IMG/VR virus record: IMGVR_UViG_3300032214_001346
Span: 1-64,000 of that record
Length of the DNA stretch: 64,000 nucleotides
Reading direction: 5' to 3' (one strand)
From: a virus
In this document: positions 30,168 through 34,976 of the stretch, one piece after another
Layout of the letters: every line of letters begins with the position of its first letter
Position numbering within the stretch: the stretch's first letter is position 1
Made by a program: the position numbers and the translations under genes
The notes under the pieces: generated by a model
Told to the model about the DNA's origin: nothing
The model's database searches: none
What the model saw: only the letters and a program-made list of their open reading frames with translations

Positions 30168-30374
30168 ATGGCACGACCATCAGATTACGGTAAAAACAAA
30201 GTAAAAGTTACGCTTAGGCTTACTCCAACAGCTAGATGTGTATATCAGTGTTACGCAGACCATTTATGTATAGCCTTTGGTGAGCTAATTGAGAGAATTG
30301 TCCGAAACCCAGACGTAGCAAGGGGTATGGCTGCTTTTCTGGAGACTGAAAAAAAAGTTTTGGAAAAGGCTTGA
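30168..30374 (+). CDS. Small RHH-like regulator; paralog of 23929..24150
   Basis: MARPSDYG..K..VTLRLTPTA. Confidence 0.6.
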   Translation: MARPSDYGKNKVKVTLRLTPTARCVYQCYADHLCIAFGELIERIVRNPDVARGMAAFLETEKKVLEKA

Positions 30375-30399
30375 CAAAATAATTCTATCCATACATAAT
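30371..30399 (+). promoter_or_regulatory. Sigma70-type promoter TTGACA-17-CATAAT
   Basis: Direct reading; overlaps the stop of 30168..30374. Confidence 0.7.
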
Positions 30400-30432: not shown

Positions 30433-31530
30433 GTGATGGACTTAGTAAAAAGAAGACAGGTATTGATCAATTTGATCTCCCGCGTCGGGAGAGGACAACA
30501 AAACATCTACCGCTGGGTAGATGAGTTAATCAGTATTGACGCTCAGATTGAGCAACAGGAACAGGTACAAGAGGAGACAAAAAAAGTGACAACAGAATTA
30601 AAATTAGCGGTAGGGATGCAAATAGTTCACCCTCGCTGGGGCGAAGGAATTATATTTGCCGTAATGGGCAAAATGGTTTCAGTGGATTTCCCAGGAATGG
30701 GAAGAAAGCTGGTATCTGATACTTCAGATTTAAAAGCTGTTGACAAACAATCTAAACAGAACAAGCCACAACAACAGTCGCAAGTACAATCACAAGCACC
30801 AATTAAGTCACAACCCAAGATTGATACAAGTATAGAAGTCGCTAAACAGCAACTTCTAGCACTTGGTGTACTGGAAGAGTCTATTTCAATCCAGGACGGA
30901 CTTGTAGTGGTCCTAGGTGCTGATTGTAAACAGCATGAAGGAAAGTTTTTCTATTGGGACAAAACAGTGTTCCCTACTGAACACGATAAGGGTTATAAAA
31001 AAGATGCAGGCAATGTCCGCATCAATCCAGCACAGATTAAAAACTCCCAGAGAAAAGCCTGGGAAAACTATAAAATTGAGCAGGGCAAAAAACCTGCTCA
31101 ACCATTTGAAAAGTGGTTAAGTGGGAGGTTAACTAACCTCCCCAAACTAGTTATTAATAAAATTGATGCTGAACCTGCATCAATTTGGATCAAAGAAGAT
31201 ATAAACAAATACGTTCTGTTTATTAACAGAACGTCACGCCACGTTCAAGAACTATGTGCTGCTATTCGGCATGAAATGAATGGCACGGATAGTCAAGATG
31301 GGAAGTTTATGGTCTTCCTGGACAACCAGGAAGAAATTACCCTCGCCTCAAAAGGGAGCGAAGGATGGAAATTGAGTACTCATGTCACCCTAATGAAAAA
31401 AGAGGGTGACACCAAGAAGGAGTTTTACGTAAAAGATGAGGTTTTTGCACCCATCATGGAAAAGTTAAATGTAGCTGCTGAAAAATGCGGTGATTCTTTT
31501 AAGATGCCATTTGGGCTTCGCGTAATGTAA
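30433..31530 (+). CDS. Hypothetical early protein with Tudor/KOW-like domain
   Basis: VG.QIVHPRWGEG.I......VSVDF, as in the UvrD C-terminal Tudor-like domain. Confidence 0.55.
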   Translation: MMDLVKRRQVLINLISRVGRGQQNIYRWVDELISIDAQIEQQEQVQEETKKVTTELKLAVGMQIVHPRWGEGIIFAVMGKMVSVDFPGMGRKLVSDTSDLKAVDKQSKQNKPQQQSQVQSQAPIKSQPKIDTSIEVAKQQLLALGVLEESISIQDGLVVVLGADCKQHEGKFFYWDKTVFPTEHDKGYKKDAGNVRINPAQIKNSQRKAWENYKIEQGKKPAQPFEKWLSGRLTNLPKLVINKIDAEPASIWIKEDINKYVLFINRTSRHVQELCAAIRHEMNGTDSQDGKFMVFLDNQEEITLASKGSEGWKLSTHVTLMKKEGDTKKEFYVKDEVFAPIMEKLNVAAEKCGDSFKMPFGLRVM

Positions 31531-31602
31531 TATCTCACTAAAGTAAGTTGTATTGCGACCTAAGCACGTCGGTAAACTGCTGTTGTAAATAAGGAGCAAA
31601 AA

Positions 31603-32646
31603 ATGGAAACAACAATGATAGTAGCGGAAGTAGATGATGAGTATCAGGGTTGTCAAGGAAAAATCATTTTCATGGCAAATACTTACTATGCAAAATTAAA
31701 AAACTACACTTTGGAGCTACAAGTACAAAAAGTTTTGTTTCTACCTAGCTGGGTTGAGATTGTCACACCGTTCAAAGCTGAAATTGAAAATGAGTTTGGC
31801 ACTAATGCTAATTCGGTATGCAATGCCGTTAGCTCGGTTTTAAAAGGTATAGAAAGACGTGTGAACGCAGAAGCGAATCAATTCCCAGATGGTATGCTAA
31901 TTCAGCAATATCAACTTTTTTGCAAGTCTGTTAAATCCTTGATGAGCGAGTATAGTAAATCTAAGCGTGTAGAAGGACAAAAGAAATTAAATTTGAGACA
32001 GCAAAATACAATTGATGTTGAGGTCGCTTCGTTGCTTTTGTGGTCAAAAGCTAAGTTGCAAAACTTACCACGACTAGGTAAAGACTGGACTGAAGTAGCG
32101 ATCGCGCTGATGACCCTTACAGGTCGAAGGCAGTCTGAAATTATGTGTAGTGGTAGCTTTGAATACCTTGATAATAACTGGGTTATGTTTAGTGGACAAC
32201 TCAAAAAACATAGTTTAGAAAGTGCCGAAAGCTACAAAATTCCCATTTTAATGGGCGCTGCTAGAGAAGTAGTTGAAGGACTTAGGTGGCTGTCAGACTC
32301 GCGTAAGCGAGTACAGATTATAGATGGTGATGTTAGTGCTGCTGCTAAAAAGGCTCATGATATGTACAGCAGTTATCTAAGCGCGAGCGTCAAGGATGTG
32401 TTAGGTGCTTATGTAAAGACTGATGATAACTGGGTTCACGAAGGAAAAGATCGGAAAAAATGTCTTCTCTTGAGACAAATATACGGTCAAGTCGTCTATC
32501 CTTTGTTTTTTAGGGATAGTAGGCAAAAAATAAACCAAGCGTTAAATCAAATTATGGGACATAACAATAGCTTAGAAGCGGGTAGGAGCAGTGTCACCTG
32601 TTATGACGCAGATGTCGTAGTGATTGACATTGATAAATGTAAATAG
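31603..32646 (+). CDS. Protelomerase / telomere resolvase family tyrosine recombinase
   Basis: LTGRRQSEI...G.F......MFSGQLKK...IP.L...LRQIY...IMGH...Y aligns by eye with TelN SGRRMIEI...FSGQAKK...SRAIY...ILGH...Y. Confidence 0.8.
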   Translation: METTMIVAEVDDEYQGCQGKIIFMANTYYAKLKNYTLELQVQKVLFLPSWVEIVTPFKAEIENEFGTNANSVCNAVSSVLKGIERRVNAEANQFPDGMLIQQYQLFCKSVKSLMSEYSKSKRVEGQKKLNLRQQNTIDVEVASLLLWSKAKLQNLPRLGKDWTEVAIALMTLTGRRQSEIMCSGSFEYLDNNWVMFSGQLKKHSLESAESYKIPILMGAAREVVEGLRWLSDSRKRVQIIDGDVSAAAKKAHDMYSSYLSASVKDVLGAYVKTDDNWVHEGKDRKKCLLLRQIYGQVVYPLFFRDSRQKINQALNQIMGHNNSLEAGRSSVTCYDADVVVIDIDKCK

Positions 32647-32708
32647 TTAGCTTTGCGACTTAAGTACGTCATTAAACTGCTGTTGTAAATACTGAAGAGC
32701 AAAATAAA

Positions 32709-33023
32709 ATGGAAACAACAATGACAGTAGATGGTTACAACTATACTTTAGTTGAATACGCTTACACAACAAACCAAGGAGACTTGGTTGGTTATTCCAA
32801 GTCCCATGACATTAAATTTGCTGGGGAAATTAAAGAAATACCTGATGATTGTGAGTGGCTGACACCACTCACTCCAGTTAAACGCGCCCCTCTGGGCGAC
32901 ACCTTCGTAATGGAAGATGGGGTGGATACTTATTCCAGACATTTCTTAGAGGAACAATTAAAAGAAGAAGAAAGTCTCAAAAGGCGTAGGATAAAGCCGG
33001 GCTGGCAGCCTTTTACCTTTTAG
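32709..33023 (+). CDS. Hypothetical protein; starts METTM like the protelomerase
   Basis: ORF behind a duplicated leader. Confidence 0.6.
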   Translation: METTMTVDGYNYTLVEYAYTTNQGDLVGYSKSHDIKFAGEIKEIPDDCEWLTPLTPVKRAPLGDTFVMEDGVDTYSRHFLEEQLKEEESLKRRRIKPGWQPFTF

Positions 33024-33028
33024 CGTCA

Positions 33029-33092
33029 TCCCACCTGATGATGGGCGGCTGGCTACCGCCCGAAACTACCACCCCGGTAGTAGTGGGAAGCC
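33029..33092 (+). ncRNA. Type I hammerhead ribozyme
   Basis: Stem I UCCCAC/GUGGGA; core CUGAUGA(U); stem II GGGCGG/CCGCCC; GAA; stem III ACUACC/GGUAGU; GUA cleavage triplet (cut after 33082); loop II GGCU can pair with downstream AGCC. Confidence 0.85.
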
Positions 33093-33121
33093 TATTTACA
33101 TTACACCCACAGGAGACAGAC

Positions 33122-33349
33122 ATGGACGTTAAAGAATTTATTATTGCTAACTGGAAAAGCACTCAATCTCTTAACACCCTATTGGGTGTTGATTTTCCCA
33201 AAAATGACGAGTTTCACTTTGGTGAAACTCCCACAGAACAAGGAAGAATTGAAGTAAAAAACGGGAAGATTACCCGTGTCACTACATGGTCAGGTTTAAG
33301 CTGGTCAGCTAAATATGGCTACAGCAGTCCTGTTGTAGATGTCTTTTAG
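33122..33349 (+). CDS. Hypothetical protein (true start ATG 33122, MDVKEF)
   Basis: AGGAG RBS at 33111-33115; the longer ORF start falls inside the ribozyme. Confidence 0.6.
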   Translation: MDVKEFIIANWKSTQSLNTLLGVDFPKNDEFHFGETPTEQGRIEVKNGKITRVTTWSGLSWSAKYGYSSPVVDVF

Positions 33350-33434: not shown

Positions 33435-33752
33435 ATGAAAGTTGGAGATAGTTTAATTGTTTTAGACAAATCCTGGAACAAGACAAGAGGGCAGGTATCT
33501 CAAGGAATTATTGAAAAGATAGGACGGACATACTTCTATGTTCGTGTTGATTATGATCTAATAAAAGTTCAGATAGGGGATTTCCCTATTGTCGTCCAAG
33601 AGTACAATGCTGTATTATTTGATTCACAAGAATCATACAGCAACTACATTCAACACAAAGATAATCTTAAAAAACTTCAAGTTGCAACCAGAAAACTTGA
33701 TTTGCTGACACCGGATCAAATACGTCGCATTTTAGAAATAATAGAAGAGTAG
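33435..33752 (+). CDS. Hypothetical phage protein (KOW-like)
   Basis: MKVGD...IEKIGRTYFYV. Confidence 0.55.
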   Translation: MKVGDSLIVLDKSWNKTRGQVSQGIIEKIGRTYFYVRVDYDLIKVQIGDFPIVVQEYNAVLFDSQESYSNYIQHKDNLKKLQVATRKLDLLTPDQIRRILEIIEE

Positions 33753-33754
33753 CT

Positions 33755-34423
33755 ATGAATCAATTAACACTCTTTGAAGAGCAGCTTACTGTCAGTGATG
33801 ACTTTACGAACGATGACTATGAAACACCTGACTGGTTAGCCAAAGCAATGGCTAATCTAGTCTTGCTTACAGACAGAGAGATTCTTGAACCATTTGCTGG
33901 TTCAGGTCAAATAGCTAAATACCTACCAAGCGATCGCTCAGTAGAGTGTGTAGAAATCAAGTATTCCCGATTTTTGCAAGGGAAAGAAAAAGCTAAGTTG
34001 GCTACATGGGTAAATGGTAACTTTTTTAGCGATATTTCTAAGTGTGGATGTGACCTTATCATCTCAAATCCACCTTTTTCTTTATGTGTTGAGGCGGTTG
34101 CCAAATCTTTGGAACTGCTTAATGATAGCCCCAATTCCCGTCTCTTGTTTTTGATGCCATTGGATTGGAATTGCTCTCAAGGAAGGGCTAAAGCGTGGGA
34201 ATCATTGGATGCACATATCCATCATGTCTACCCTATCGCCGACAGGATAGATTACCTGAAAGATGGTATTCCTATGAGCAAGCAACAAAAAATAGTTAAT
34301 GGTGTTCCGCAGTTCAAGAGTGGAAAGCCAGTCATGAACAGCGGTCGTCAATGTTACGATGCTGTTTTTGATATCCGTTTAAGCAAATCACGGTCAGCAT
34401 TAACACTAATTTTCAAGCCATAA
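33755..34423 (+). CDS. DNA N6-adenine methyltransferase
   Basis: YETP.W, ILEPFAGSG (SAM binding), SNPPF (catalytic). Confidence 0.85.
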   Translation: MNQLTLFEEQLTVSDDFTNDDYETPDWLAKAMANLVLLTDREILEPFAGSGQIAKYLPSDRSVECVEIKYSRFLQGKEKAKLATWVNGNFFSDISKCGCDLIISNPPFSLCVEAVAKSLELLNDSPNSRLLFLMPLDWNCSQGRAKAWESLDAHIHHVYPIADRIDYLKDGIPMSKQQKIVNGVPQFKSGKPVMNSGRQCYDAVFDIRLSKSRSALTLIFKP

Positions 34424-34438
34424 GAGGAGCATAACACA

Positions 34439-34894
34439 ATGGACACGCTGTTAATCAGCTTACACCCTCGCCACTGTCAGAACATTCTCGCAGGGAACAA
34501 GACGATAGAGCTTAGGAAAAGAAGTCCAAGGAAAAGAAGTCCAAAAGCCATTAAGCCAGTTTTTTTCCCTGGCAACAAACAAGGACTGATTCCTAAATTC
34601 AAAAAAATATTGATTTATGAGACCAAGCCGACAGCAGCAATTGTAGGATTAACCACACCCACTGAGATAATTGAACACACTTGCAGCGAGTGGCATAAAT
34701 TTACAAGCGAATTATGCTTGTCTGTAAGTGAAATAGAGGAATATCTAGGCGGATATTGTGGATGGGGAATCAAAGTAGAAAACCCCCAGCTAATTACACC
34801 AATTCCACTTTCAAAAATGCGTGATTTAAACATCACGCCACCACAAGGGTACAGATATCTAAGTGACGAATTAGTTGAGCAACTACTCGCATAA
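34439..34894 (+). CDS. ASCH/PUA domain protein
   Basis: ISLHP.....IL.G.KTIELRK, IYET.P..AIVG, PPQGYRYL. Confidence 0.85.
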   Translation: MDTLLISLHPRHCQNILAGNKTIELRKRSPRKRSPKAIKPVFFPGNKQGLIPKFKKILIYETKPTAAIVGLTTPTEIIEHTCSEWHKFTSELCLSVSEIEEYLGGYCGWGIKVENPQLITPIPLSKMRDLNITPPQGYRYLSDELVEQLLA

Positions 34895-34936: not shown

Positions 34937-34976
34937 AGCGATCGCCTTTTCCGTTAGGCGATCGCTATTTTTTTTG
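34937..34976 (+). terminator. Intrinsic terminator whose stem is formed by two HIP1 octamers
   Basis: AGCGATCGCCT-tttccgtt-AGGCGATCGCT followed by a T tract. Confidence 0.7.

Follow-up and report, generated by a model that had tools for sequence, protein, structure and literature searches.

A predicted pseudoknotted type I hammerhead ribozyme between two genes of a CL131-like cyanophage operon, and its possible part in dividing the operon mRNA

Hammerhead ribozymes stabilised by pseudoknots have been known in phage intergenic regions since 2011, when Perreault et al. described them in phages and prophages (PMC3088659). In prophages they flank genes, several ribozymes surrounding a single gene or a short block, and it was proposed that they serve in the processing of mRNA. 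Pseudoknots are found in all hammerhead types and are required for fast cleavage, at over 1 per min in 0.5 mM Mg (PMC3088659). What hammerheads do in prokaryotes and phages is regarded as an open question (PMC6155905). Two further points of reference are the Rfam families RF00163 (Hammerhead_1) and RF03152 (RAGATH-1 hammerhead), and RiboJ, a synthetic insulator in which the sTRSV hammerhead is joined to a 23-nt hairpin and which raises the expression of the gene downstream (PMC6206723).

The window analysed here is a 64,000-nt stretch, positions 1 to 64,000, of the IMG/VR virus record IMGVR_UViG_3300032214_001346. The whole record is 93.4 kb long, is estimated to be 94% complete and is related to the Aphanizomenon phage vB_AphaS-CL131 (hereafter CL131). 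Between two genes of the window lies an unannotated member of the pseudoknotted hammerheads, and it does not represent a new class of element. Like those of Perreault et al. (PMC3088659), it is intergenic, has a stabilising pseudoknot and shares its strand with the flanking phage genes; it differs in being of type I, with loop II pairing to a 3' tail beyond a 5-bp stem I, and in having a U inserted after A9. It differs also in number, as the 93-kb genome has a single hammerhead, whatever the type, and CL131 has two, 6.8 kb apart. A literature search for hammerheads in cyanophages (CL131-like, with Nostocales hosts) found no report, and the CL131 genome paper makes no mention of ribozymes. The definition of the hammerhead is unchanged by what follows, and the added value is modest; it consists of placement statistics, a covarying hairpin and a cultured relative. 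The parts of the element are these.

33029..33092, + strand: complete type I hammerhead ribozyme with its pseudoknot tail (from sequence reading, fold, covariation and a covariance model)
33030..33034, + strand: stem I, 5' strand, CCCAC, with an optional sixth pair through U33029
33035..33041, + strand: core C3 to A9, CUGAUGA (sequence reading)
33042, + strand: extra unpaired U between A9 and G10.1 (sequence reading)
33043-33048 with 33056-33061, + strand: stem II, 6 bp, GGGCGG/CCGCCC (sequence reading, covariation)
33049-33055, + strand: loop II, 7 nt, CUGGCUA (sequence reading)
33062..33064, + strand: core G12 A13 A14, GAA (sequence reading)
33065-33070 with 33076-33081, + strand: stem III, A15.1-U16.1 and 5 bp (CUACC/GGUAG), loop ACCCC (sequence reading, covariation)
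33082..33083, + strand: predicted cleavage site 33082|33083, after H17 = A33082, triplet GUA (sequence reading)
33083-33088, + strand: stem I, 3' strand, GUGGG(A); GUGGG at 33083-33087 is also the 5' arm of a proposed post-cleavage hairpin
33051-33054 with 33089-33092, + strand: pseudoknot, 4 bp, loop II GGCU with 3' tail AGCC (sequence reading, covariation)

Sequence and fold agree on the type I topology, in which stem I is open and loops close stems II and III, and ensemble folding of a 77-nt stretch gives the three-stem hammerhead junction as its centroid. The A15.1-U16.1 pair is formed by A33065 and U33081, and H17 is A and not G, as hammerheads require. A sequence-only reading of the window had pointed out the consensus core, the extra U after CUGAUGA and the GUA triplet, all of which can be read directly from the letters. 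The three stems that it called perfect are likewise all present; the sixth pair of stem I, U33029-A33088, is nevertheless not a feature of the family, being paired in 24 of 102 distinct family sequences among the matches listed, and stem I is therefore effectively of 5 bp. Its spacing was also accurate: the motif begins 5 nt past the stop codon TAG, and the cut, placed by it about 40 nt before the next start, lies 39 nt ahead of the ATG at 33122. An open reading frame listed from 33038 (103 aa) was rejected as a gene start. Its ATG sits within CUGAUGA, in frame with 33122, and the ATG at 33122 is for this reason taken as the real one.

The evidence that this is a conserved RNA comes from its relatives. 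When a 2.5-kb query around the ribozyme was compared by blastn with 50,697 phage records, a single record matched, that of CL131, with 84% identity over 81 nt that cover the ribozyme stretch only; the match falls in an unannotated gap between gp142 and gp141. Relative to the window, the CL131 copy has a G-C to A-U double change in stem II, an A-U to G-U change in stem I and GUC in place of GUA. Pattern scans of IMG/VR gave 9 loci with the same loop II and at least 120 loci with CUGAUGA-U-GG-N15-CC-GAAAC, and among the matches listed 123 of 132 raw pattern matches form a complete type I hammerhead. The family extends to bacterial genomes of many phyla, including Nostoc calcicola; 34 of 121 pattern matches there are full hammerheads.

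From the matches listed, 102 distinct family sequences were aligned. The core is invariant in this alignment by construction of the search pattern, and the stems formed part of the selection filter, which 123 of the 132 raw matches passed; the pseudoknot was not used in the selection. Among these 102 listed sequences, 91% of the cells are paired; the figure is 68% when columns are shuffled and 28-44% when partners are slid. Of the 23 pairs, 20 have changed on both sides. Pairing is 86% in stem I, 98.5% in stem II and 95.5% in stem III, with 6, 4 and 5 pairs, respectively, changed on both sides (same listed sequences). In the pseudoknot helix 83% of the cells are paired, and each of the five pairs has changed on both sides (same 102); columns 25-73, for example, are UA in 37 of the listed sequences, CG in 30, GC in 21, AU in 10 and unpaired in 4. 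Again among the matches listed, A15.1-U16.1 is AU in 102 of 102 family members, and of 104 members 98 have C at H17 and 6 have A.

A covariance model was built on an alignment of 95 family sequences from which the window, its cyanophage kin and a Treponema MAG copy sharing loop II had been excluded. In the 64-kb window it has a sole match, at 33029-33094, with 70.4 bits and an E value of 4.4e-19. Judged from sequence comparison, it is thus strongly supported that the element is a genuine, evolutionarily conserved type I hammerhead with a pseudoknot. The independent model, the covariation and the compensatory changes in the cultured cyanophage CL131 bear out the identity first proposed from the letters, and the loop II/3'-tail helix GGCU/AGCC, then put forward as a possibility, gains the five covarying pairs described above.

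The Rfam hammerhead models, which the sequence-only reading had proposed as a check, gave a different result. There was no hammerhead match in a scan of the 64-kb window at gathering scores or in a scan of 351 nt at E up to 10, and RF00163 gave no match over the whole genome. RF00163 and RF03152 describe the same class of ribozyme, and the former, a model of 45 positions, shares the open stem I; neither reaches its threshold at the window locus, that of RF00163 being 34 bits. The same models also fail on 21 other members of the family. RF00163 matched none of these 21 loci (14 with the U insert and 7 lacking it) at E up to 10, and RF03152, which has a gathering score of 56.3, scored about 25 bits on two members only, both lacking the insert. 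The extra U was considered as the cause of the miss and rejected, since members without it are missed too. As both kinds fail, the miss reflects the narrow scope of the type I model, and the consequence for annotation is that the Rfam type I model misses a whole pseudoknotted phage subclass.

The insert itself is common. Among distinct full hammerheads, the base following A9 is U in at least 104, there is no extra base in at least 66, and A, C and G together account for 11. An extra nucleotide at the same place in the CChMVd (+) viroid hammerhead was reportedly described by De la Pena and Flores in 2001, U being the best tolerated. The min-hammerheads of PLEs leave a base unpaired where helix II begins at its 5' end, and a bulge at this point is seen in natural hammerheads (PMC4209133). 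Thus the family counts and the bulged base of other natural hammerheads make the extra U a common polymorphism and not a novelty. The phage family resembles the PLE and CChMVd (+) ribozymes in having one extra nucleotide between A9 and stem II, which the active core tolerates; those ribozymes, however, belong to eukaryotic retroelements or a viroid and lack the loop II/tail pseudoknot, whereas in the phage family the insert is almost always U.

The ribozyme stands within a row of genes on the same strand, the features of which are as follows.

Upstream end of the gene row, + strand: two HTH genes, then a 68-aa open reading frame
30371-30399: promoter-like site, near-consensus sigma-70-type TTGACA-17-CATAAT, matching at 11 of 12 positions
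30433..32646, + strand: proximal block, a 365-aa protein and protelomerase (31603-32646, PF16684, E 4e-24)
32709..33023, + strand: upstream gene, 104 aa, no family match, stop TAG at 33021-33023
33106..33110, + strand: second copy of CCCAC, directly before the Shine-Dalgarno sequence; could pair with GUGGG 33083-33087 (5 bp, 18-nt loop)
33112..33124, + strand: Shine-Dalgarno GGAG (33112-33115) and start ATG (33122-33124)
33122..33349, + strand: downstream gene, 75 aa, no family match; predicted first cistron of the 3' cleavage product
33435-33752, + strand: ProQ C-terminal-like protein (PF24203)
33755-34423, + strand: DNA methyltransferase (phrog_799, E 2e-26)
34439-34894, + strand: 151-aa protein
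34937-34966: strong terminator-like hairpin, 11 bp and a T run

The hammerhead is thus intergenic and on the operon strand, with the protelomerase and 104-aa genes before it and the 75-aa, ProQ-like, methyltransferase and 151-aa genes after it. The gene order places it between a protelomerase part and a methyltransferase part, as had been claimed; the ASCH domain by which the latter part was also named is a sub-threshold Pfam match (E 0.03) on the 151-aa protein. The promoter-like and terminator-like sequences bracket a unit of about 4.6 kb, and cleavage at the hammerhead would leave parts of about 2.7 kb and 1.9 kb. No RNA run is listed that covers the ribozyme locus; one contains a 131-nt piece of the upstream 104-aa gene as a contig, which is uninformative on expression.

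Relatives differ in what surrounds the ribozyme. The 104-aa gene upstream is common to the relatives L005, L007 and L008, and the 75-aa gene downstream to L005 and L007 only, and in CL131 and L002-L004 both neighbours are unrelated to those in the window. Because flanking genes have been replaced while the cassette was kept, the cassette is better conserved than its neighbours. Its position is regular. Placement was examined at 148 distinct family loci among the matches listed, with an antisense control and with downstream reading frames of at least 50 aa. The same-strand reading frame upstream stops at a median of 4 nt before stem I, and within 30 nt in 77% of these listed loci as against 23% in antisense; the stop codon abuts stem I in some relatives. 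The next frame starts at a median of 42 nt past the cut, and within 80 nt in 82% as against 60% in the control (148 listed loci). The window, at 5 nt and 39 nt, conforms to the family norm. This quantitative placement rule (stop about 4 nt upstream, start about 42 nt past the cut) argues for a role in shaping the ends of cistrons.

We consider it probable that the element is an active, pseudoknot-stabilised type I hammerhead of the bacterial and phage kind, which would split the + strand mRNA of this operon of a CL131-like cyanophage of about 93 kb co-transcriptionally. Once the polymerase has passed 33092, stems II and III would form, then stem I and then the pseudoknot between loop II and the tail, and the RNA would cut itself between A33082 and G33083. 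Hammerhead chemistry predicts a 2',3'-cyclic phosphate on the 5' product and a 5'-OH on G33083 of the 3' product. The proximal mRNA (encoding the 365-aa protein, protelomerase and the 104-aa protein) would accordingly retain the folded ribozyme body and its cyclic phosphate as a structured 3' end just past the last stop codon. The distal mRNA (75-aa protein, ProQ-like protein, DNA methyltransferase and 151-aa protein) would begin with the 5'-OH and a defined leader of 39 nt, and its first five bases could re-pair with CCCAC 33106-33110 to give a 5'-terminal hairpin ahead of the ribosome-binding site. The two halves of the transcript would in this way gain separate ends, and therefore, it is proposed, separate stabilities and translation efficiencies. 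That the mRNA would be split here, as the sequence-only reading had suggested, is supported by its fit to the operon anatomy, to the placement rule of the family and to the proposal of Perreault et al. 2011 (PMC3088659).

The candidate hairpin deserves separate comment. The second CCCAC is kept in seven of seven cyanophage-type copies, 8-18 nt past the pseudoknot tail, despite variation in the spacer and in the flanking genes. The predicted fold of the 3' product pairs GUGGG 33083-87 with CCCAC 33106-33110 at -6.6 kcal/mol, which is no better than shuffles. A wider comparison used 191 hammerheads, clustered into 110 groups, from among the matches listed. In 13 of these 110 listed clusters, a sequence exactly complementary to the 3' strand of stem I begins 10-23 nt past the cut, as against 0-3 clusters in six downstream control windows of equal size. 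This complement changes together with stem I, the pairs being GUGGG/CCCAC, GCGGA/UCCGC (in Nostoc), GUAGC/GCUAC, AUGGG/CCCAU and UGCGG/CCGCA. Where the arrangement is tightest, the pseudoknot tail serves as the loop of the hairpin. As judged from these sequences, the predicted hairpin is a minority trait, present in about 12% of lineages among the matches listed, the window's among them. Before cleavage, the minimum-energy fold predicted for the RNA has CCCAC 33106-33110 competing with stem I; the ribozyme fold is, we infer, kinetically favoured, because the competing CCCAC is transcribed last. Two further loci, L282 (the cyanobacterial Nostoc calcicola FACHB-3891 contig90) and L386, have the same architecture but differ in stem I, which is UCCGC/GCGGA; at each of them the 5' strand of stem I recurs downstream with matching alterations, leaving a loop of 17 nt, and another perfect hairpin lies beyond.

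It is tempting to compare this arrangement with RiboJ. Both would employ self-cleavage that removes the upstream RNA and leaves a defined, hairpin-capped leader before the ribosome-binding site, as predicted here. RiboJ is, in contrast, engineered, of type III and provided with a separate hairpin, whereas the window hairpin would reuse the freed 3' strand of stem I, and there is no family relationship. Tentatively, and with rather less confidence than in the splitting itself, the ribozyme, the downstream copy of stem I and the ribosome-binding site may be seen as a natural 'cut-and-cap' cassette, by analogy the counterpart of the engineered insulator. In this reading the freed 3' strand of stem I would flip to the downstream copy, so that cleavage would be irreversible, the 5'-OH mRNA protected by a hairpin and the ribosome-binding site presented; this would hold for about one in eight lineages and for all the CL131-like cyanophages examined. 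With the covarying hairpin, the way in which the downstream message might be stabilised becomes concrete and testable.

An opposite effect on the distal genes has to be weighed. A 5'-OH end can mark an mRNA for decay, a precedent being the product of the glmS ribozyme, which is degraded by RNase J1 in B. subtilis. As RNase J exists in cyanobacteria, cleavage could hand the distal mRNA to a 5' exonuclease and so lower its expression, the ribozyme then acting as a constitutive attenuator that fixes the ratio of proximal to distal products. Consistent with this, the ribozyme sits within an operon, and no strong promoter separates the cut from the gene that follows. Nevertheless, a 5' exonuclease would be hindered by a hairpin in which the conserved CCCAC can hide the 5' end, and the defined leader with a good Shine-Dalgarno sequence right after the hairpin suggests that the distal mRNA is meant to be translated. 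Cleavage of the RiboJ type, moreover, increases expression in E. coli (PMC6206723). Overall, we regard attenuation as unlikely.

The short distance between stop codon and stem I raises another point, namely that a ribosome terminating on the upstream gene would cover the 5' strand of stem I and block folding, so that cleavage would report upstream translation. The tightness of this spacing throughout the family (5 nt here, median 4 nt, with some stops abutting the stem) would suit such a switch, but it is equally well explained by genome economy and by a function of the ribozyme body as a protective 3' structure. Cleavage by pseudoknotted hammerheads is rapid, exceeding 1 per min in 0.5 mM Mg (PMC3088659), and one ribosome-free interval would suffice for it. 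Coupling to translation seems distinctly improbable.

Slightly less credence still is due to the notion that the element brings no benefit to the phage, being a cassette spread by recombination or a remnant of a mobile or circular RNA, with the pair of CCCAC sequences a duplication left by insertion. Hammerheads are indeed common in selfish elements (PMC3088659), the cassette sits between unrelated gene pairs and CCCAC flanks it as a direct repeat. Against this, the intact core and the compensating changes of the stems in relatives indicate selection for activity, and in many lineages the repeat downstream covaries with stem I as its partner in a helix. The idea of a circular or excised RNA in particular was rejected, because with a single hammerhead in the genome no unit-length or circular RNA could be excised. 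Finally, chance resemblance without activity might be argued from the silence of the Rfam hammerhead models and the extra nucleotide in the core, but it is scarcely credible given the E value obtained with an independent model (4.4e-19), the covariation, a conservation that exceeds that of the neighbouring genes and the fact that an unpaired base between A9 and stem II is usual in other natural hammerheads (PMC4209133).

Splitting of the operon mRNA by the hammerhead remains the preferred reading, and CL131, which is cultured and infectable and carries the same ribozyme at two sites, offers a system in which in vivo cleavage and the fate of the mRNA could be measured. One of the two lies at MG209611.1 105171-105233 on the minus strand. 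The second CL131 hammerhead (MG209611.1 98379-98442, minus strand) starts directly after the stop codon of gp131, and both CL131 copies are unannotated. The 24-aa CDS 'gp130' (MG209611.1 98349-98423, minus strand; L138 2350-2424) overlaps the second hammerhead and is probably spurious.

Other ribozymes and RNAs occur near some family members. On the IMG/VR contig L163, a type II hammerhead at 2741-2802 (RF02276, 42.2 bits, above gathering) lies about 430 nt upstream of a type I pseudoknotted one at about 3229, and the pair flanks a gene in the manner that Perreault et al. described. Other RNAs follow family hammerheads at a distance of about 310-390 nt downstream: on L016 at 1013-1085 a sub-threshold match to an HDV-like ribozyme (RF02682, 31.7 bits, gathering 44), and on L080 at 668-740 a tRNA (67.5 bits).

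Several smaller features of the operon itself were also seen. A leader of about 85 nt is duplicated with 88% identity (31540-31625 and 32640-32730), ahead of the protelomerase and 104-aa genes; the two reading frames open with the same five codons (METTM), and the second leader copy contains a promoter-like site at 32683-32710. In the 75-aa gene there is a sub-threshold match to the gyrA RNA motif (RF01740; 33182-33245, + strand; 25.5 bits against a gathering score of 45; E 2.9e-4 in the 351-nt search only), comprising two hairpins and then an AG-rich tail, which is probably due to chance. A pairing of CGGGC 32998-33002 with the 3' strand of stem II appears in the predicted fold of the 5' product and was set aside, since these bases are coding and the protein C-terminus GWQPF accounts for their conservation. 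A weak terminator-like hairpin (32999-33011, + strand; GGGCU-GGC-AGCCU and a T-rich run) lies in the last codons of the 104-aa gene, 18 nt 5' of the ribozyme; it could modulate or limit read-through into the ribozyme, and its conservation is also explained by the same C-terminus.
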